Notes: generated by a model from the letters alone, not told the origin. A stretch of 64,000 nt of DNA from an uncultured Gemmatimonadales bacterium (GCA_963795085.1 CAWCFX010000002.1:224001-288000); one strand, 5' to 3'; shown: positions 16,033 to 25,517, counted from the stretch's first letter. Made by a program: numbers and translations.

Positions 16033-17070
16033 ATGAGATACCGCCTGATTGCCACGACACTGCTGGCCGCTCTGTGGGTGGGAGCGTGCGACAACAAGAT
16101 CGCCGACCCGCTTCCTGGCGAGACCGCCATGATCCGCCTGGTCCACGGGGCTGCATCGCCGGGCGCACTCGACTTGCGGGTGGATGGCGCCGCGGTCCTG
16201 GCCAGCGTGGCCGCGACCCAGATCTCGAGCTACGCGGAGGTGGCCGCGGGGACCCGGACAGTCAGCGTAACCCTGGCGGGCTCCAGCCAGGTCCTGTTGA
16301 CGCGGCAGATATCTCTGGCTGCGGACGGCGAGTACACCGTCCTGGTGTCCGGCACACCAGGGTCGCCCGAGTGGATGATTGCCTCGGACACGGCATTCAT
16401 CCCGCTGGCGGGAAAGGCAAAGATCCGGGTCCTGCACGCCGCCCGCCAGGCGCCTCCCCTGGACGTGTACCTGACGACCCCGGGGGCCGACCTGGCGACC
16501 TCGTTCAAGCTGGTCGAGCCGTTTGCGTTCAACGTGAATGACACCGCGTACTTCCCCGGGTTTGCGGAGCGCGATCCGGGCGACTGGCAGATGCGGTTCA
16601 CAGCGGATGGAACGACCGACGTGGTCCTCGACACCGGCCCCTTTGCGGCGGGGGCGGGAAAGGTGATCACCGTGATCCTGTCCCACGATGGCGGGAATGC
16701 CCTGGTGGCCCGGATCGTGGATGAAACTCCCGGTACAACGCCCCAGCGAGTGGCCATCCGGGTGAACCACGCGGCACCGGCGGTGCCCAATGTCGCGCTT
16801 CACCTCACGGACCCGGGGGCGGACCTGAACCTCCCTCATCTCACGATTTCGCCGTTCAACTATGGGGTGGACAGCAGTACCGTGACGTTCATGCTGCCGC
16901 CGAACAACCAGAACAGCCTGGACTTCGAGGTGCGCTTCACCGAGATCGGCACCCTGAACCTGCTCGCTTCCTCGGGGGCGGTCTCGGCGCCGGTGAATGC
17001 GAGCAAGCTGGTCACCCTGCGGCCGGCCCAGGGCGGCGGCCTGGAGGTGGTCGTGACGGACGCGCCCTGA
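16033..17070 (+). CDS. DUF4397-domain lipoprotein
   Basis: Lipobox VGAC. Three repeats: IRLVHGAASPGALDL, IRVLHAARQAPPLDVYL, IRVNHAAPAVPNV. Confidence 0.8.
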   Translation: MRYRLIATTLLAALWVGACDNKIADPLPGETAMIRLVHGAASPGALDLRVDGAAVLASVAATQISSYAEVAAGTRTVSVTLAGSSQVLLTRQISLAADGEYTVLVSGTPGSPEWMIASDTAFIPLAGKAKIRVLHAARQAPPLDVYLTTPGADLATSFKLVEPFAFNVNDTAYFPGFAERDPGDWQMRFTADGTTDVVLDTGPFAAGAGKVITVILSHDGGNALVARIVDETPGTTPQRVAIRVNHAAPAVPNVALHLTDPGADLNLPHLTISPFNYGVDSSTVTFMLPPNNQNSLDFEVRFTEIGTLNLLASSGAVSAPVNASKLVTLRPAQGGGLEVVVTDAP

Positions 17071-17114
17071 GCATTCATCTGGCCGGGAGGCGCGGTTATA
17101 TTACGCCCGCGTTT

Positions 17115-17202
17115 GGACGGGTGGCCGAGTGGCTTAAGGCGCACGCCTGGAAAGCGTGTGGGGGTCTCAAGCCCCTCGCGGGTTCGAATCCCGCCCTGTC
17201 CG
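17115..17202 (+). tRNA. tRNA-Ser(GGA), long variable arm, CCA not encoded
   Basis: Acceptor stem GGACGGG/CCTGTCC, D-arm TGGCCGAGTGG, anticodon loop CTGGAAA, T-loop GGTTCGAATCC, discriminator G. A -10-like TATATT lies at 17097-17102. Confidence 0.95.
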
Positions 17203-17229
17203 TCGGGTCCTGCCTCCGCGGGTGAATCC

Positions 17230-17257
17230 TTGTTCCGCCCGGTATCGTACCTAGATT
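17230..17257 (+). promoter_or_regulatory. Putative sigma70 promoter of the copper operon (leaderless start)
   Basis: TTGTTC-N16-TAGATT, ending 6 nt before ATG 17264. No SD. Confidence 0.45.
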
Positions 17258-17263
17258 CCTGTC

Positions 17264-17614
17264 ATGTCCTCCCGGTCCCTTCGATCCCGGATCGCAGCCC
17301 TGGTGCTGCTGCTCGCCTCCCCCGGCCTGGCCGGGGTGGCGCTTGCCGCGGCCCATCCATGTCCGGACCAGGCACCCTGGACCGTCGAGCCGGGCGATCA
17401 TCACCACGCCCCGGCTCCGGCGGAGCAGCATGATTGCCATTGCATCGGCAGTTGCCAGACCGCCGTCCCGGCCCCGATTCCTGCTACGGGGGACGTGCTC
17501 ACCCCGGTCGAACCCGTCGAAGCGGTCGTCCCCCGCTTTGAGGCCGGGAGCCGCATCCATCCGGTCCAGCCTCGCCACCGCCTTCCTCCCGCTACCGCAC
17601 CTCCCCAGCTCTAA
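17264..17614 (+). CDS. Secreted Cys/His-rich leader protein with Pro-rich C-terminus (CruR/CutF/DUF2946-like uORF)
   Basis: Signal peptide, HPC, HHH, HDCHCIGSC and C-terminal RHRLPPATAPPQL. Directly upstream of a TonB-dependent receptor. Confidence 0.75.
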   Translation: MSSRSLRSRIAALVLLLASPGLAGVALAAAHPCPDQAPWTVEPGDHHHAPAPAEQHDCHCIGSCQTAVPAPIPATGDVLTPVEPVEAVVPRFEAGSRIHPVQPRHRLPPATAPPQL

Positions 17615-17703
17615 CGGCAGCGCGGTTCGCCGCGCCTGATGTGCCCCGCCACCGGCGGGGCGCATCGACATGACCATTGCCTTGGAGCCTTCATCTTGGG
17701 GAG
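17601..17703 (+). promoter_or_regulatory. Predicted SD-sequestering RNA structure
   Basis: CTCCCCA (17601-17607) is the exact reverse complement of TGGGGAG (17697-17703, the receptor SD). Two hairpins are nested between them: GCGCGG-TTCG-CCGCGC (17620-17635) and a 13-bp stem at 17638-17666. Confidence 0.6.
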
Positions 17704-17707
17704 CATC

Positions 17708-20008
17708 ATGCATGCACGTGGCATTGTTATGACGGGCCTGCTGGCCGGACTGGTTTCCGCGTCCGCCCAGGCCCAGAACGGAAGTATCAGCGGGACCGTG
17801 ACCGGAGCGGTGAGCGGCCAGGTCATCGCGGGGGCTACCGTGTCCGTGGCGGGATCCGCCCGGAGCGTCGCGACCGACCGGGTGGGACACTATCGCCTCG
17901 CCGGCGTCGCGCCGGGCCGATTGGTCCTCGATGTCCGGCAACCCGGGTATGACCCGGTGCGCCGCGAGGTGGATCTCGCGATAGACCAGGTGATGGTCCA
18001 GAACTTCGTGCTGAGCGCGGCGGCGACCGAGCTCGCCGCCCTGACGGTGATCGGTTCCCGCAGCGACCTGCAGGAGACCCGGCAACGGCTGGACCAGGTC
18101 CCCGGCGGGGTGGACCTGGTGTCCGCCGAGGAGATTCAGTCGACCCGCCAGGCCAATCTGCGAGACGTGCTCAGGATGACGCCGGGAGTCTTCGTGCAGC
18201 CGCGGTTCGGGGCCGCCGACGAGAGCCAGATCAGCATCCGGGGCTCCGGGCTTCGAAACAATTTCCACGCGCGGGGCGTCAATCTGCTGGTCAACGGGAT
18301 GCCCTACCGCAATGCCGACGGGTTCACCGACTTCGAGTCGCTGGAGCTGCTCAACACCGAGGCCATCGAGGTGTACAAGGGCGCCAACGCGCTCCGCTAC
18401 GGCGGGTCCACCATGGGCGGTGCCATCAACCTGCACACCCGGACCGGCTACACGTCCCCGGGGCTCTCGGTGACCGCCGAGGGCGGAAGCTTCGGATTCC
18501 TCAAGGCCCAGGTGGCGGCCGGAGGTGTCAGCGGCGGCTTCAACTATTTCGCCAGCTACGCCCGCACCGAGCTGGAAGGCTTCCGGGACTACAACGTGCA
18601 GGGACGCGACCGGGTCAATGCCCACGCCGGCTATGTTCTGACGCCCTCGACCGATCTGCGGGCCTTTTACTTCTTTGCCCGGGTGAATGAGCAGCTACCC
18701 GGCGCGTTGACGGCGACGGAATTCGCCGCGGATCCGACCCAGGCCAACGCCGGCAACCGCGCCGGCCGCTGGGGACGGGACTACGACCTGCACCACCTCG
18801 GGCTCCAGCTCCGCAGCCAGCCGGGCGCCAACCAGCGGCTGGAGATCAACCCGTACTTCCAGTACCGGGATATCGATCACCCGATTTTCCGGGTCATCGC
18901 CCAGGTCAGCCGCGACTACGGCGCCGAGATCCGCTACGAGAATGCGAACCCCATCGGGGGACGGACCAACCGCTTCGTGCTGGGGGTGCAGCCCGCGTTC
19001 ATGCGCCTGGACAACCGCCAGTTCGACAACCAGGCCGGCCAGCATGGGTCGCTCCGGAAGGACCAGGAGGACGGGGTCCAGGCGCTCGCGGTGTACGCCG
19101 AGAACATGCTGGGCCTGACTTCCCGGCTCTCCCTGGTGCTGGGGGCCCGGTTCGATTACTCGACTCGCAAGACCGAGGATTTCTTTCTTTCGGACGGCGA
19201 CCAGTCCGACGAACGCACCTACCAGCCGCTCAGCCCCAAGGTGGGGGTCCTCTATGTCATGGACGGCGACGGGCAGGTGTTTGCCAACGTGAGCCGGTCC
19301 TTCGAGCCGCCGCTCCTGCTGGAACTCAACAGCCTGACGGTGCCGGGGTTCATCGACCTCGAGGGGCAGGACGCGCTCCAGTTCGAGGTGGGGACCCGGG
19401 GCCGGTTCGGCGGATTCCGCTGGGACCTCTCGCTCTATGACGTCGAGATCCGCAACGAGATTCTGAACGTGAACGTGGAACCGTTCCCCGGCGCCGGGTT
19501 CACGGTGCCCACCTACCGGAACGCGGCGAAGACCAGACACTACGGCATCGAGGCCGGGGCCCAGTACGGCATCCCAGGCCCGCTCCTCACCGCCGGCCAT
19601 GGCGGCGACGGACTGCTGCTCCAGGCAGCCTACACGTTCGGCCACTTCACCTACGTTGAGGACGGGGCGTTCGGCGGCAACGACATCCCGGGCGCGCCCC
19701 GGCACGTGGTGAACGCCGAAGCCAAATACGTTCACCCCTCCGGTTTCTCCCTGGCCCCGAGCGTGGAGTGGGCACCGACGTCGTACTTTGTGAACAGCGA
19801 GAACACCGAGACCAACCGGGGCTGGATCAACCTTGGTCTCCGGGCCGAGTGGGCCCTGCCGGGGCCGGGGCTCACGATCTTCGCTGCCGGGCAGAACCTG
19901 ACCGACACCCGCCGTTCCCCCTCGGTCCAGGTGGACAATGCCGCCGGCCGTTTCTACGAGCCGATGGATGGCCGGTCCTATTACATCGGCCTGCGGTGGG
20001 GCCGGTAA
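17708..20008 (+). CDS. TonB-dependent receptor with N-terminal carboxypeptidase-regulatory-like domain
   Basis: Signal AQA-Q, GSISGTV domain, plug motifs ISIRGSG, LLVNGMP and IEVYKGANALRYG, C-terminal GRSYYIGLRW. Confidence 0.93.
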   Translation: MHARGIVMTGLLAGLVSASAQAQNGSISGTVTGAVSGQVIAGATVSVAGSARSVATDRVGHYRLAGVAPGRLVLDVRQPGYDPVRREVDLAIDQVMVQNFVLSAAATELAALTVIGSRSDLQETRQRLDQVPGGVDLVSAEEIQSTRQANLRDVLRMTPGVFVQPRFGAADESQISIRGSGLRNNFHARGVNLLVNGMPYRNADGFTDFESLELLNTEAIEVYKGANALRYGGSTMGGAINLHTRTGYTSPGLSVTAEGGSFGFLKAQVAAGGVSGGFNYFASYARTELEGFRDYNVQGRDRVNAHAGYVLTPSTDLRAFYFFARVNEQLPGALTATEFAADPTQANAGNRAGRWGRDYDLHHLGLQLRSQPGANQRLEINPYFQYRDIDHPIFRVIAQVSRDYGAEIRYENANPIGGRTNRFVLGVQPAFMRLDNRQFDNQAGQHGSLRKDQEDGVQALAVYAENMLGLTSRLSLVLGARFDYSTRKTEDFFLSDGDQSDERTYQPLSPKVGVLYVMDGDGQVFANVSRSFEPPLLLELNSLTVPGFIDLEGQDALQFEVGTRGRFGGFRWDLSLYDVEIRNEILNVNVEPFPGAGFTVPTYRNAAKTRHYGIEAGAQYGIPGPLLTAGHGGDGLLLQAAYTFGHFTYVEDGAFGGNDIPGAPRHVVNAEAKYVHPSGFSLAPSVEWAPTSYFVNSENTETNRGWINLGLRAEWALPGPGLTIFAAGQNLTDTRRSPSVQVDNAAGRFYEPMDGRSYYIGLRWGR

Positions 20009-20076
20009 TGGCGGTGCCCCGGACCGGTGCCTGGCAGTATAAATTGCAACCTGGGGTCGTCCCGGGGAGGTCTTCC

Positions 20077-21390
20077 ATGAGATGGCAGGCAGTAGCGTTT
20101 TCAATGGCGTTGCTCGCTGGGTGCAACGGAGACGCGCCGCGCGCCGGGCTGGCGAGCGTGATGCTCCCGGTTCCGGCCGGCGGGGCAGAGACGGCGGATG
20201 CCGCGCTGGCCCGCGACCCGGAAACTGGCGATGTCCTGCTCAGCTGGGTCGGCGGCGATAGCGCGGGCTGGGCGCTCTATTTCGCCCGGAGCGGAGACGA
20301 GGGTCAGACCTGGGAATCCGCGACCGCGGTGACGGCGCCGGGTCTCGACCTGCGGCCCACCGGAGAATCCTCCCCCCGGCTGGTTCCCGCGGCCGGGGGC
20401 AGGGTCGCCCTGGTATGGACCCGGAGCGTCCCGGTGCCCGGGCAGCGGTGGCCGGCGACCGAGATCAGGATCGCCCGGTCCCTGGATGGCGGCGCCACCT
20501 GGTCGCCCCCGCTCACCCTGAACGACGACAGCGCCGGCACGCCGGCGGGGCACCAGTTCCAGGGGGCGGCCTGGCAGGGCGACTCGGGGCTGGTGGTGAG
20601 CTGGCTGGACGAGCGGAAGGGCGCAGCGGAGCGAGTGCTCGGCGGGACCAGCCCGACAGCAGGGGACCCGACCGATGAGCCGGACGCGGTCATCGTCACG
20701 GCCTTTTCACCCGACTTCGGGCGCACCTGGGGCCAGTCGAATGAACTCCTGTGGGGACAGGTCTGTCCCTGCTGCCGGGTGACGCTGGCGCGCCACCCCG
20801 ATGGATCGGTGATCAGCGCGTGGCGAAAACACTATCCCGGGAACATCCGGGACGTGGTGACAGCACCAGTGGCGCCCGGCCTGCGAAGCGAGCCGGTCCG
20901 GGTCAACCAGGACAACTGGGTGTATCCCGGCTGTCCCTATACCGGACCGGGTATCGCCGTGGGCCACGATGGGGCCAGGCATGTGGTCTGGTACATGGGG
21001 AAGGAGGGCGCCGCGGGGGTCTATTATCAAAGAGTGGACCAGGGCGGGTCGCCGGCCGATCCACCCCTGGCGTTAATACGGGCCCAGACCTTGCCATCGG
21101 CCCATACCACGGTCGCCGCGTTGCCCGGCGGACGCGCCCTGGCGGCCTACGACCAGACCGGGACGGGAGACCGGGCGGTCGGCCTGTCCTTGATTGGGGC
21201 CAGCCGGGATGTCCTCGAGCAGCACACCATTGCCGGCTCGGAAGGCGGGCAATATCCCCAGGTGCTGTCGGTCGGGCCCGGACGGGCCCTGGTTGCCTGG
21301 GTCGGCCGCAGCGGCGAACGACGCGCCGTGCGCCTGGCGGCGATAACTTTCAACGCTTCAGAGGGATCCGCAGTGGCCCTCAGGGACTAG
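20077..21390 (+). CDS. BNR/Asp-box (sialidase-like) beta-propeller lipoprotein with CPCC motif
   Basis: Lipobox LAGC. Asp boxes SGDEGQTW, SLDGGATW and SPDFGRTW. VCPCCR and GCPYTGP motifs. Confidence 0.8.
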   Translation: MRWQAVAFSMALLAGCNGDAPRAGLASVMLPVPAGGAETADAALARDPETGDVLLSWVGGDSAGWALYFARSGDEGQTWESATAVTAPGLDLRPTGESSPRLVPAAGGRVALVWTRSVPVPGQRWPATEIRIARSLDGGATWSPPLTLNDDSAGTPAGHQFQGAAWQGDSGLVVSWLDERKGAAERVLGGTSPTAGDPTDEPDAVIVTAFSPDFGRTWGQSNELLWGQVCPCCRVTLARHPDGSVISAWRKHYPGNIRDVVTAPVAPGLRSEPVRVNQDNWVYPGCPYTGPGIAVGHDGARHVVWYMGKEGAAGVYYQRVDQGGSPADPPLALIRAQTLPSAHTTVAALPGGRALAAYDQTGTGDRAVGLSLIGASRDVLEQHTIAGSEGGQYPQVLSVGPGRALVAWVGRSGERRAVRLAAITFNASEGSAVALRD

Positions 21391-21394
21391 CATC

Positions 21395-21790
21395 ATGCGA
21401 CTCCGAGTACCGCGATCGGCGCTGGCCATGGCGGCAGCCGTCCTGCTGTTTCCGGCCGCGTTTCATCTCCGGCTGGTCAAGAGCCTCCCCGGCGACGGCG
21501 ATGTGCTATCCTCCGCGCCGCCCGAAATCCAGCTGTGGTTCAGCCAGAAGCCCGAGATGGGACTGACCACTATCCGCCTGCTGCGTCCGGACAGTTCGAA
21601 AGTGGAGACCGGCCCGGTGGCGCCGGCCGACGACTCCCTGGCCGTCAAGGCGAAAATCGGCAGCGCGCTTGTCCCCGGCCGTTACACCGTCACCTGGAAG
21701 ACGGCTTCCCGGGACGGCCACGTGGTCCGGGGCAGCTATGATTTCATGGTGGTGCCCGGCCCCCCGGCGAGGAAGCAATCGGGCCCCTGA
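21395..21790 (+). CDS. copC: Periplasmic copper-binding protein CopC
   Basis: Signal peptide then HLRLVKSLP. IQLWFSQ and YTVTWKTASRDGHVVRGSYDF motifs. Confidence 0.9.
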   Translation: MRLRVPRSALAMAAAVLLFPAAFHLRLVKSLPGDGDVLSSAPPEIQLWFSQKPEMGLTTIRLLRPDSSKVETGPVAPADDSLAVKAKIGSALVPGRYTVTWKTASRDGHVVRGSYDFMVVPGPPARKQSGP

Positions 21791-22689
21791 TGGACCTGCT
21801 GCTGCCCGTCGCCCGGTGGATCGGCTCCCTCGGTCTCGCGGGCCTGGTGGGAGCGGCGACCTTTCAGGCCATTATCCGACTCCGGCTGGCCCGGCACCAT
21901 TCTGCCGCCGCGCCCCGGCTCATTGGGCGGGCCCGGGCCGGGGCCTTCATCTCCCTCCTGCTCATTCTCGCATCGCTGGCGCTCAAGCTGCTGGGCCAAC
22001 TGCAGGCACTGGTGGACCCGGGTGAGGCCGTTACCCGCGAGCTGTTTGATCTTGCGGTCCTCCAGTCTTCCTGGGGACACAGCTGGCGTATCCAGGCCGG
22101 TGTCGCGGTGGCGGCGCTGGCCGGTGTGCTCCTGCTACGGAACACCTGGGCCCTGGTGGTGTTCGCGGTGGCGGCGGTGGCGGTCGCACCGCTCACCGGC
22201 CATGCGGTGGAGCACCCGTGGGGCAGGGACGTCGGGATCGCCCTGCACGGGTTCCATGCCCTCGGCGCCGGCGTCTGGCTGGGCACTCTCGCGATGGTGC
22301 TGGGCGGTGGGTACGCCGGGACGCGCGCGCTCCCGGAGGAGGACCGTCACCGGCTGATCGCCGACCTGGTGCACGCTTACTCGCCGGTGGCGCTCACCGG
22401 GGTGGCCGTGATCATCGCGGCGGGCCTCGCGATGACCTGGACATACGTGGATCCGCTCTCCGGGCTCTGGAGTACCGGATACGGCCGGGTCCTGCTGCTC
22501 AAGATCGTGCTGCTGGCCGGCACTGCAGGGCTCGGCGCCTACAACTGGAGGCGGGTCCGTCCCCGGTTGGGGGAGGCCGCCAGCAGTGCCCAGCTCTATC
22601 GTTCGGCCACGCTGGAACTGGTGCTGGGCGCGCTGGTGCTGGGCGCCACCGCCGTACTGGTGGCCATGGCCGCGCCGGGACTGGAATAA
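21790..22689 (+). CDS. copD: Inner-membrane copper import protein CopD
   Basis: Multi-TM. LTGHA, HALGAGVWLG, TGYGRVLLLKI and LGAYNW motifs. Coupled to copC. Confidence 0.88.
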   Translation: MDLLLPVARWIGSLGLAGLVGAATFQAIIRLRLARHHSAAAPRLIGRARAGAFISLLLILASLALKLLGQLQALVDPGEAVTRELFDLAVLQSSWGHSWRIQAGVAVAALAGVLLLRNTWALVVFAVAAVAVAPLTGHAVEHPWGRDVGIALHGFHALGAGVWLGTLAMVLGGGYAGTRALPEEDRHRLIADLVHAYSPVALTGVAVIIAAGLAMTWTYVDPLSGLWSTGYGRVLLLKIVLLAGTAGLGAYNWRRVRPRLGEAASSAQLYRSATLELVLGALVLGATAVLVAMAAPGLE

Positions 22690-22701
22690 GACGTTGCTCG
22701 G

Positions 22702-22730
22702 TTGATTTGGCCCGGGCACCGCACTACTTT
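22702..22730 (+). promoter_or_regulatory. Putative sigma70 promoter of pyrRBC
   Basis: TTGATT-N17-TACTTT, ending 9 nt before ATG 22740. Confidence 0.55.
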
Positions 22731-22739
22731 CCCGCCCCG

Positions 22740-23276
22740 ATGCCCTCCCGCACCCCTCTCCTGGACGACCGCGCGATCAGCCGCGCACTCACCCGCATGG
22801 CTTCCGAGATCGTCGAACGCTGCCAGGGAATCGAAGGCCTCGTGCTGGTGGGAATCCAGCGCCGGGGCGTCGAGCTGGCGGACCGGCTGGCCCGGCAGAT
22901 CGAGGCCTCGGAAGGCGGGGCAGTGCAGCGGGGCAAGCTCGACATTACCCTCTATCGCGACGATCTCCAGGCGGTGGGTCCCCGCCCGGTGGTGGGCGAG
23001 ACCCGGCTGCCGGCCAACCTGGACGGCACCACGGTCGTGATCGTGGACGACGTGCTCTACACCGGGCGCACGATCCGCGCCGCGCTGGACGAGTTTGCCG
23101 ATTTCGGGCGGCCCCGGCGGATCCTGCTCTGCGTCCTGATCGACCGGGGCGGCCGGGAACTGCCGATTCACGCCGACATCGTCGGAACCACCATCAACAC
23201 CAGTCCCCGGGATCGCGTCGATGTCCTTGTCAGCGAACTCGATGGCCGCGACGCCGTTGAACTTGTCCGCGACTGA
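22740..23276 (+). CDS. pyrR: Bifunctional pyr regulator/uracil phosphoribosyltransferase
   Basis: [36 protein letters not shown] and DRGGRELPI motifs. Confidence 0.95.
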
Positions 23277-24234
23277 ACCGGCGGTGCCCACCCTGGGCAA
23301 GGACCTGGTCGGGCTGGAACCGCTCAGCGCGGACCAGATCCGCCTGATCCTCGATACCGCCGAACCCTTCAAGGAAGTGAGCGAGCGCCCGATCAAGAAA
23401 GTCCCGGCGCTCCGCGGCAAGACCATTGTCAACCTCTTCTTCGAAGCCTCCACCCGGACCCGGATCTCCTTCGAGTTTGCCGAGAAGCGGCTGTCCGCCG
23501 ACACGGTCAACGTGGCCGCGTCCGGCTCGTCGGTCAGCAAGGGGGAGACGCTGGTGGACACGGCGCGCAATCTGGAGGCGATGCGGATCGACATGGTGGT
23601 GATCCGGCACGGCTCGTCCGGGTCCGCCCAGTTCCTGGGCGACCGGATCCGCTCCAACGTGGTGAACGCCGGCGACGGCAAGCACGAGCACCCGACCCAG
23701 GGACTCCTCGATATCCTCACGCTGCGCGACAATTTCGGGAAGATCGAGGGCCTCAAGGTCGCTATCTGCGGGGACGTACTCCACAGCCGGGTGGCGCGGA
23801 GCAATATCTGGGGCCTCACCAAGCTGGGGGCCGAAGTGGCCGTCTGCGGTCCGGCCAGCCTGATGCCGCGCGACATCGAAGCCCTCGGCGTTACCATCAT
23901 CCCCCACATCGAAGACGCCATCCAGTGGGCCGATGCGCTCAATATTCTTCGTCTTCAGCTGGAGCGGATGAACGCCGGCTTCATTCCCTCGCTGCGGGAG
24001 TACAACCGGGTCTTCGGGGTCACCCGCGAGCGGCTGGAGCGGGCCCCCAAAGACCTGATCATCATGCATCCGGGCCCCATGAACCGCGGGGTTGAAATCG
24101 ACAGCGACGTCGCCGATGGCCCCCACAGCGTCATCCTGCCCCAGGTCACCAACGGCGTCGCGGTCCGGATGGCGGTGCTCTATCTGCTGGCCGGCGGGTC
24201 GCCCACGTGGGCCAGCGAGGGAGGCGAGCGGTGA
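23263..24234 (+). CDS. pyrB: Aspartate carbamoyltransferase catalytic subunit (start uncertain)
   Basis: [20 protein letters not shown] and [11 protein letters not shown] motifs. Confidence 0.95.
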
Positions 24235-25517
24235 GCACGATTCTCCTGCGGGGCGGGCGGGTGGTGGATCCCTCGCAGAACCTCGACCGGGTCTCCGATG
24301 TGCTGGTGGTGAACGGCAAGGTGGAGTCGGTCGCCGAGCGGCTGGCCGCACCGGATGGCGCCAACGTGATCGACGTGGCCGGCCGGGTCGTCGCCCCGGG
24401 GCTGATTGACCTCCACGTGCATTTCCGGGAGCCTGGCCAGGAGGACCTGGAGACCGTGGCCACCGGCGCGATGGCCGCCGTGGCGGGCGGCTTCACCTCG
24501 GTCTGCGCGATGCCGAATACCGATCCCGTCACCGATAACCAGGCCGCCATCGGGTTCATCGTCCGGCAGGCGCAGCGGGCGGCCCGGGCCCGGGTCTATC
24601 CGATCGGGGCGATTACCCTGGGCCAGCGGGGCGACAAGCTCGCCGAGTTCGGCGAGATGGTGGGCGCCGGCGCGGTCGCGGTGAGCGACGATGGCAAGCC
24701 GGTGGTCTCCAGCCACATGATGCGCACCGCGCTGGAGTACGCCAGGACCTTTGGCATCCCGGTGGCGGATCACTGTGAAGAGCCGTCACTCGCCCAGGGC
24801 GGCGTCATGCACGAAGGTATCGTGTCCACCCGGCTCGGCCTCAAGGGGATTCCCGCCGCCGCGGAAGAAATCATGGTCGCGCGTGATGTCATCCTCGCCG
24901 AGCTCACCGGCGGACACGTACACCTCTGCCACATGTCCACCCGGGGGTCGGTCGAAATTATCCGGCGGGCCAAGGAGAAGGGGCTCCGGGTGACGGCGGA
25001 GGCGACGCCGCACCACTTCTCCCTGACCCATGAGCGGTGCGAGGGCTACGACACCAACGCCAAGATGAACCCGCCGCTGCGCGAGGCCGCCGACCGGGAG
25101 GCGATTCGCCAGGGCCTCAAGGATGGCACCCTGGACGTGATTTCGACCGATCACGCGCCCCACCACTACGATGCCAAGGAACGCGAGTTTGACGATGCGC
25201 CCAACGGCATTATCGGGCTGGAGACCTCGCTGGGCCTGGCCCTGACCGAGCTGGTCCACACCGGGCTCCTCACCCTCCCGCAGCTGATCGCCCGGATGAG
25301 CACCGATGCGGCCCGCATTTTCAGGCTGCCGGGGGGGACTCTGCGGAAGGGGTCGCCGGCCGATATCGTGATTATCGATCCGGACCGGAAATGGACGGTG
25401 CGCCCGGAAGAATCCTTCAGCAAGAGCCGCAATACCCCGTTTGCGGGGGCCGAGTTGAAGGGCAGGGCGGTCTCCACCATCGTGCGGGGCAGCGTGGTTT
25501 TCGACCTGGGCGATTGA
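24231..25517 (+). CDS. pyrC: Dihydroorotase
   Basis: [21 protein letters not shown] and TDHAPH motifs. GTGA overlap with pyrB. Confidence 0.94.

Follow-up and report, generated by a model that had tools for sequence, protein, structure and literature searches.

An arginine-less TAPP leader, a candidate metal-sensing stalling peptide, heads a TonB receptor and copper-gene operon in a Gemmatimonadota bacterium

Our analysis of a 64,000-nt stretch of DNA from an uncultured Gemmatimonadales bacterium (GCA_963795085.1 CAWCFX010000002.1:224001-288000; hereafter the window) indicates that a small upstream open reading frame (uORF), standing first in a plus-strand operon for a TonB-dependent outer-membrane receptor, a BNR_2-like lipoprotein, CopC, and CopD, probably encodes a metal-sensing stalling leader peptide of the CruR/CutF kind, whose ribosome would unmask translation of the receptor gene. 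The original prediction had proposed an analogous CruR/CutF-type switch in a different lineage; the motifs, the spacer, and the neighbourhood agree with that proposal, all of its suggested checks that are open to computation having given the predicted outcome, and the replacement of the Arg of RAPP by Thr speaks against it. The ORF coordinates, the motifs, and the same-strand order receptor-BNR-CopC-CopD that it gave are confirmed by ORF translation and Pfam, and the APP codons do lie at 17597-17605, where they read GCA CCU CCC.

The leader ORF (17264..17614, ATG to TAA) encodes 116 residues and is identified by its sequence and by conservation within its family. In particular, residues 1-30 (17264..17353) form a candidate export signal, with a basic N-terminus followed by a hydrophobic core; an H31-P-C33-P34 motif (17354..17365) follows directly; a His-rich stretch contains H46-H-H48 and H56-D, the latter directly preceding C58; C58-H-C60-I-G-S-C64 (17435..17455) is, by its conservation, a candidate metal site, and holds a CutF-like CxxxC (C60-C64); a spacer of 46 residues (17456..17593), variable in sequence and fixed in length, leads from the Cys motif to the APP module; and L107-P-P-A-T-A-P-P114 (17582..17605), marked by conservation and codon bias, is a candidate arrest module. 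The C-terminal ending, RHRLPPATAPPQL, reads R-H-R-L-P-P-A-T-A-P-P-Q-L, with the APP ending two residues before the C-terminus (PP being residues 113-114 of 116). An AlphaFold2 model built on a 141-sequence alignment contains helices at residues 4-17 and 20-30 only, that is, in the signal peptide, and otherwise no fold, and a PDB sequence search with the family profile returned no matches at E up to 10.

The leader belongs to a family of its own. Comparison of the leader with Pfam and NCBIfam gave nothing over cut-off. A profile search over 1.84 billion representatives, with a family threshold of E up to 0.001, retrieved 139 proteins (representatives of 50% identity clusters), 53 of them at 1e-10; their length is nearly always 115-140 aa, and the profile match stops 1-2 residues short of the C-terminus. 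The named family records, among the matches listed, are all from Gemmatimonadota/Gemmatimonadales, and are all annotated as "hypothetical protein" with no Pfam domain. At the genome level, the family profile matches (E up to 0.001) in 130 of 301 Gemmatimonadota genomes, some of which carry two to four copies and the window's genome one; two of the positives, G099 and G212, are unpublished genomes, and nothing claimed here rests on those two alone. Profile scans of genome contigs and metagenome contigs confirmed at least two and at least five loci, respectively.

Conservation within the family is concentrated in the motifs. Specifically, a word-indexed search gave 11 close homologues (48-59% identity to the leader), in which M1, H31-P-C-P, A-P-W, H46, H56, C58, C60, G62, C64, and R-L-P-P-A-T-A-P-P are invariant; in the 141-sequence alignment, where mean column identity is 17%, C58, C60, P108, P113, and P114 are invariant and H31, C33, G62, C64, and A112 are at least 90% conserved. 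CxCxxxC together with [AGP]PP in the last 12 residues is present in 132 of 149 proteins examined, and HxC[PA] in 119 of the 149. Among the 132 proteins with both motifs, the ending is TAPP in 109, LPP stands four residues before it in 89, and the PP is followed by exactly two residues in 98 and by three in 24. Where RAPP has Arg, 109 of the 132 thus have Thr and the rest Asn, His, Ile, Leu, or Ala; none has Arg. The distance from the Cys motif to the APP is tightly constrained (43-48 residues, mode 46, in the 132 proteins; 44-48, standard deviation 0.9, n=104), whereas the HxC-to-CxC gap ranges from 13 to 66 residues (standard deviation 7.8, n=104). The expectation that CxCxxxC and LPxxxAPP would be conserved in homologues is therefore borne out in the close homologues, in the wider set, and in the alignment, and the family has CxCxxxC in place of CxxC and, in most members, TAPP in place of RAPP.

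The codons at the APP site are distinctive. In 70 non-redundant loci, the first Pro of the APP is encoded by CCU or CCA in 43 (61%), as compared with 18% of 436 other Pro codons in the same uORFs, and the Ala is encoded by GCU or GCA in 31 of 45 (69%), as compared with A/U-ending codons in 22% of 613 other Ala codons; the second Pro is chiefly CCC (36) or CCG (18). The use of rare A/U-ending codons at Ala-Pro suggests that either the nucleotides or the decoding tRNAs are under selection at the proposed stall site, and the source of the bias could be either tRNA choice there or pairing with the Shine-Dalgarno sequence of the receptor gene.

The same codons are predicted to pair with the translation start of the receptor. 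The receptor ORF (17639-20008) has its most likely start at the ATG at 17708 and not at 17639, where the first ATG stands, because GGGGAG (17698-17703) is located five bases upstream, a signal peptide follows the ATG, and the N-terminus so defined matches that of a same-genus homologue; the leader-receptor intergenic region is therefore 93 nt. The segment 17590-17725 has a predicted minimum free energy (MFE) of -71.2 kcal/mol, as compared with -50.3 +/- 3.6 for shuffled sequences (z = -5.81). In the MFE fold, the codons A110-T-A-P-P-Q-L-stop (17591..17614) form a masking strand that pairs with the receptor translation-initiation region (17682..17722), comprising 17682-17688, the Shine-Dalgarno sequence UGGGGAG (17697-17703), the AUG (17708-17710), and codons 2-5, all of it paired with the masking strand except for the AUG loop. 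Specifically, 17601-17607 (CUCCCCA, in the Pro113-Pro114-Gln115 codons) is predicted to pair with UGGGGAG; 17608-17614 (Gln-Leu-stop) with 17682-17688; and 17591-17599 with receptor codons 2-5. Two G+C-rich hairpins (17620-17635 and 17637-17667), with no U tract after them, are predicted inside the long-range helix.

Related loci show the same tendency. In 32 loci, the mean predicted pairing probability between the Shine-Dalgarno window and the last 33 nt of the uORF is 0.45, exceeding 0.3 in 22, against a mean of 0.12 for its pairing with the intergenic region, which is far longer; shuffling the motif lowers the 0.45 to 0.24 (over 0.3 in 9 of 32 loci), and replacing the motif by another uORF segment gives 0.18 (6 of 32). 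An MFE helix between the uORF end and the start region has at least 6 bp in 25 of the 32 loci. These helices differ in sequence from one relative to the next, and the UGA stop is often part of them.

The genes downstream are those of a putative copper-uptake system. The receptor (17708..20008) matches the Pfam Plug (7.8e-21) and barrel (6.1e-43) domains and has an N-terminal CarboxypepD_reg domain (Pfam, 1.3e-17). The BNR_2-like lipoprotein (20077..21390) has a lipobox LAGC and a CPCC motif; in an alignment of 11 homologues (29-50% identity), C230-P-C232-C233-R and G-C286-P are invariant, and its nearest clusters in a language-model atlas carry sialidase/BNR annotations from several phyla, making it a candidate copper-handling partner of the receptor. 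Next are the periplasmic copper-binding protein CopC (21395..21790; Pfam CopC, E 7.7e-21; NCBIfam copper_CopC, 61 bits, below the cut-off of 95) and the inner-membrane copper protein CopD (21790..22689; Pfam CopD, E 2.3e-22; NCBIfam copper_CopD, 95.4 bits, below the cut-off of 195), whose start overlaps the CopC stop. Both proteins have a role in copper import.

The association of leader and receptor recurs in relatives. Across 34 non-redundant loci, the leader stop is followed after 9-208 nt by the next ORF on the same strand; leaving the window aside, this ORF is a TonB-dependent receptor (Plug and/or CarboxypepD_reg) in 25 of 33 loci. The remaining eight comprise two Phenol_MetA_deg outer-membrane barrels, one Asp/Arg hydroxylase, one AhpC/TSA redoxin, and four uninformative cases, in three of which (L023, L025, L050) the wrong frame was picked and in one of which (L002) the ORF was cut after 78 aa; one spurious minus-strand match in L025 was dropped before the count. 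The order leader, receptor, BNR_2-like gene is found in 11 of 20 loci for which about 9 kb downstream was taken. Copper genes stand beside other copies of the leader as well: CopC in L062; CopD proteins in L067 and L078; a redoxin-SCO1-PCuAC-CtaG cluster in L074; and a di-haem peroxidase in L075. A same-genus contig has leader, receptor, BNR gene (with CPCC), and CopC, and then ends. The gene-neighbourhood check proposed for the uORF thus bears out the TonB receptors, with CopC, CopD, SCO1, PCuAC, and CtaG recurring nearby. The complete chain from outer membrane through periplasm to inner membrane that had been proposed is present in the window, and the phylum-wide core is smaller, consisting of leader, receptor, and BNR-like gene. 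Several of the relatives have a phosphoribosyltransferase (pyrR-like) directly after the BNR gene, and CopC and CopD therefore look inserted into a conserved leader-receptor-BNR-pyr order; in the window, pyrR-, pyrB-, and pyrC-like ORFs, judged from their translations, follow CopD (22700-25517).

Some loci contain more than one leader. In L078, two copies stand in tandem ahead of one receptor; in L067, one of two nearby copies heads a CopD protein and the other a receptor-BNR pair; and in L074, one of two nearby copies heads the redoxin-SCO1-PCuAC-CtaG cluster and the other a receptor. The three loci with Phenol_MetA_deg-type barrels (two) and an Asp/Arg beta-hydroxylase (one) are L042, L043, and L049.

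Upstream of the leader, on the same strand and at a distance of 59 nt, is a tRNA-Ser(GGA) gene (17114..17204; ARAGORN; Rfam tRNA, 57.7 bits). A scan of 20 other family loci found the same tRNA gene ahead of the leader in 5 (L004, L023, L025, L031, L034), and one database homologue (P0010) has an N-terminal extension that resembles the translated 3' half of a tRNA. The tRNA may be co-transcribed with the leader or may mark the promoter region. A consensus scan of 16900-18000 for promoters and intrinsic terminators found none of either, and an Rfam scan of 17000-17800 (E up to 1) returned the tRNA alone over threshold and no known leader or riboswitch. Further upstream lies a DUF4397 lipoprotein-like gene (16033-17070; E 2.1e-34), with no apparent link to the operon.

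The relation of the leader to DUF2946 (PF11162), the family of CruR, had been put forward for comparison by hidden Markov models (HMMs). The leader itself matches PF11162 with 9.1 bits (E 2.9; cut-off 23.7), residues 15-114 aligning to profile positions 8-117 of 117. PF11162 matches at E up to 10 are found in 63 of 141 members, always reach the profile end, and are the only family matches to recur; 12 members scanned as a set gave a best E of 0.008. The nearest named clusters in the language-model atlas are DUF2946 (score 0.95), which we take as a lead. In the same 301 genomes, PF11162 itself has 22 matches, 9 of them over cut-off, to canonical CxxC...RAPP proteins (L120-L133), and a global hhalign alignment of the TAPP family with such proteins is collinear, placing C58 and C64 on two Cys, Thr on Arg, and APP on APP. 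The comparison thus yields recurrent full-length matches that stay below threshold. Homology of the TAPP family to DUF2946 is unproven; the architecture and the geometry are the same. The family departs from the hallmarks of DUF2946 in having CxCxGxC at the site of CXXC and in lacking a C-terminal RAPP, and shares with the CruR family the Cys-to-xAPP spacing of about 45 residues, the predicted export signal, and the position as first gene in an operon with a TonB receptor and/or copper genes.

We propose the following mechanism. The leader would be translated and exported by a Sec-type route, and the ribosome would pause on LPPxTAPP; in the likeliest stalled state, Pro113 would occupy the P site and Pro114 the A site, with two codons left before the stop. 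With the CxCxGxC motif 46 residues behind the pause site, the motif would be positioned just outside the exit tunnel. A paused ribosome would cover 17591-17614, which otherwise would pair with the Shine-Dalgarno and first codons of the receptor gene (17682-17722); given the usual ribosome footprint, a ribosome with Pro113 in its P site would span the whole masking strand, and its dwelling there would open the receptor start site. When the ribosome terminates and leaves, the helix would re-form and shut the start. Metal binding by the Cys and His motifs of the nascent chain would alter the dwell time and would thereby set translation of receptor, BNR, CopC, and CopD. The operon looks like an uptake system, and copper would therefore be expected to shorten the pause and to lower expression, as in CruR. 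We infer the pause, copper as the ligand, and the direction of control.

Several observations weigh against this mechanism. First, and most seriously, the Arg of RAPP is irreplaceable in the characterized arrest peptides and is Thr here, and RAPP-type arrest therefore cannot be assumed; a pause, if any, would rest on other contacts, for which LPP, being invariant, and Thr and Ala, both strongly conserved, are candidates, and the fallback, by analogy with CutF, is a weaker diprolyl pause sensitive to EF-P. The genome has two EF-P genes, each scoring above the NCBIfam cut-off (C1:1036055-1036606 and C6:788040-788588), together with a true rho (691 bits) and a second Rho-like gene (443 bits, below cut-off; C6:492915-494153 and C4:394091-395272), and an EF-P-sensitive pause and a route through Rho are therefore both possible. 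Second, homology to DUF2946 cannot be demonstrated: the PF11162 gathering score of 23.7 is reached by 0 of 141 members (best 21.5 bits among the 129 scanned singly), and hhalign of the TAPP family with 11 canonical CxxC...RAPP proteins of the same phylum gave a probability of 7.5% in local and 21% in global mode. Third, copper specificity is weakly supported: the receptor reached no NCBIfam equivalog and matched no copper-specific receptor model, and CopC and CopD follow the receptor in a minority of loci. Fourth, the masking helix is a thermodynamic prediction: 7 of 32 loci have no such helix (1-2 bp in two, none in five); the downstream starts in the 32 loci were chosen by hand, from ribosome-binding-site strength and signal-peptide-like N-termini; some pairing is expected by default, since the Shine-Dalgarno is purine-rich and Pro and Ala codons are C-rich (hence 0.24 in the shuffled control); and the Wilcoxon p values against the two controls (1e-4 and 2e-5) overstate the effect, since the loci are related.

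Some of these points could instead be read as plain translational coupling, in which the uORF product is an ordinary small periplasmic copper-binding protein and the 3' end of the uORF happens to mask the receptor start, so that any ribosome finishing the uORF opens it, without regulated arrest or metal sensing by the nascent chain. The predicted helix would by itself be enough for such coupling, the conserved N-terminal HPCP, the His and Cys motifs, and export all fit a metal-binding protein, and Thr stands where known arrests need Arg. We nevertheless consider coupling of this kind improbable: the model has no fold past the signal peptide; the spacer is fixed in length and not in sequence, which a binding protein does not need; LPPxTAPP is conserved exactly 2-3 residues from the stop; and the Ala-Pro codons appear to be selected for rarity.

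Attenuation as in CruR also has a small chance of being the operative mechanism. Here the paused ribosome would block Rho, and its release would lead to termination of transcription in the intergenic region, possibly along with Shine-Dalgarno masking. Such a mechanism has been demonstrated for CruR-BfrG, the nearest relative linked to a receptor (PMC9426467); Rho is encoded in the genome, and the consensus scan found no intrinsic terminator. The 93-nt intergenic region is, however, a poor Rho loading site, because it is almost wholly folded into the two G+C hairpins and has no excess of C over G (C 33, G 31); it is shorter than the 162 nt of cruR-bfrG reported in the same source; and attenuation would leave the recurrent Shine-Dalgarno pairing with no role.

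A purely protein-level role for the conserved C-terminus, as a signal in sorting or processing or for docking to the receptor, the BNR protein, or CopC, with no part for the ribosome, is very unlikely: LPxT resembles sortase-type motifs, and conservation at the amino-acid level would be accounted for, but the ending has no hydrophobic anchor or charged tail, only 2-3 residues follow the PP, the codon bias and the fixed distance to the Cys motif would go unexplained, and the same plan with RAPP is, by experiment, a ribosome-arrest element in CruR (PMC9426467).

Three further readings were discarded. The sortase-like reading was rejected in view of the missing anchor after the motif; a methanobactin-type ribosomally synthesized and post-translationally modified peptide (RiPP) was rejected in that no MbnB/MbnC-type families were found among the neighbouring ORFs scanned with Pfam; and a metallochaperone was rejected in that no fold is predicted.

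A stronger version of the stalling-leader reading can be put forward tentatively, and we regard it as possible rather than probable: LPPxTAPP might be a distinct, Arg-independent arrest module, made of two spaced diprolyl units and requiring particular tRNAs for GCW-CCW, with the stall codons doubling as the anti-Shine-Dalgarno strand. If so, a single copper switch, built jointly from nascent peptide, decoding tRNAs, and mRNA helix, would serve outer-membrane copper uptake across Gemmatimonadota.

The principle of an exported, metal-sensing stalling peptide that acts while nascent is already published; the Arg-less motif, the use of stall codons as masking strand, and the rare-codon signature are new. 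A full-text search found no literature that joins Gemmatimonadota with arrest peptides, DUF2946, or CruR, and two papers in which the phylum co-occurs with a CutF-like term look unrelated, judged by title and abstract. The portions of the CruR and CutF papers and supplements available to us (PMC9426467, PMC9973294) do not mention the phylum; isolated members of the leader family may be present in the large list files of PMC9973294. The stalling-leader reading would carry the CruR/CutF principle to a poorly studied soil phylum, in which nearly half of the 301 genomes searched are positive and in which current Pfam and NCBIfam models leave every family member a "hypothetical protein". It would also mark out two candidate copper-uptake components, the receptor and the BNR-like lipoprotein with its CPCC. 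The Arg-less motif offers a natural test of whether arrest can be built without a supposedly indispensable Arg, and both the masking of the start site by stall codons and the rare-codon preference are directly testable by mutagenesis.

Comparison with characterized systems, as they are described in the papers cited here and below, places the leader between two of them. CruR (Bp2923 of Bordetella pertussis; DUF2946, PF11162) is the leader of cruR-bfrG-bp2921 and stalls on RAPP until copper, sensed through its CXXC, relieves the stall, whereupon Rho terminates transcription (PMC9426467); the CXXC-to-RAPP spacing is 45 residues, give or take 1-2, and control is lost upon insertion of five residues (Roy et al., PMC9426467). 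Most CruR homologues reported are proteobacterial, a few coming from Planctomycetes, Firmicutes, and Deinococcus, and the partners of the homologues are TBDT, ScoC, PCuAC, CopC, MbnPH-like, and AhpC_TSA proteins (PMC9426467). Like CruR, the leader is a small exported product of a first gene directly upstream of a TonB-dependent receptor, has its Cys motif about 45 residues (here 46) ahead of xAPP, has this motif 2-3 residues from the C-terminus, and is predicted to be unstructured; like CruR homologues, its family has CopC, SCO1, PCuAC, AhpC/TSA, and MbnH-like proteins as operon partners. Unlike CruR, it has CxCxGxC for CXXC, Thr for Arg, an additional invariant LPP, and an N-terminal HPCP; its intergenic region is folded as well as shorter; the predicted control is Shine-Dalgarno masking, where CruR uses Rho; and its A-P codons are rare, whereas frequent codons are reported for the B. 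pertussis RAPP (PMC9426467).

In CutF of Rhodobacter capsulatus, copper binding to the CxxxC causes stalling on PPP, and the ribosome held there opens the stem-loop in which the Shine-Dalgarno of cutO is hidden (PMC9973294; 10.1101/2025.02.05.636593). Like CutF, the leader has a Sec signal, a CxxxC, and an Arg-less C-terminal Pro motif, with a short intergenic region and an mRNA structure (predicted here) over the Shine-Dalgarno of the next gene that a stalled ribosome would open. It is shorter than 150 aa and has a signal peptide, a Cys/His site, and PP within the last 15 residues, the filters applied to CutF-like proteins by Ozturk et al. 2023 (PMC9973294), and by prediction it shares the CutF-like trait of a Shine-Dalgarno shielded by mRNA structure, here across 93 nt. 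CutF, with its PPP, precedes a copper-detoxifying oxidase and is copper-induced, whereas the TAPP leader precedes an uptake-type receptor, so that the opposite sign of control is expected; the masking strand, moreover, lies inside the leader's own last codons, unlike in CutF.

The leader can further be compared with ApcA, ApdA, ApdP, and SecM, in which the Arg of RAP is irreplaceable, all 19 substitutions relieving arrest (PMC12992588; PMC10951233), and in which the Arg of RAPP/RAGP peptides makes five hydrogen bonds to 23S rRNA (PMC10951233, PMC12992588). Like these peptides, it is a small secreted protein with x-A-P-P close to its C-terminus, encoded ahead of the gene that it would regulate, and with SecM in particular it would share the unmasking of a downstream Shine-Dalgarno. 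It differs in having Thr111 at the Arg position, and thus no R-A-P(/G) core, and in the genes downstream, which are a TonB receptor, BNR-like, CopC, and CopD, where RAPP-type peptides precede Sec/YidC protein-localisation genes.

Gemmatimonadota itself also has canonical CxxC...RAPP genes, which encode proteins of the same length, with a spacer of 43-46 residues and 2-6 residues after the PP; they are rarer in the phylum than the TAPP family, being present in 22 of 301 genomes (9 over cut-off) as compared with 130. The TAPP leader thus combines the TonB receptor partner and the spacer geometry of CruR with the Arg-less ending, the CxxxC, and the predicted Shine-Dalgarno masking of CutF.

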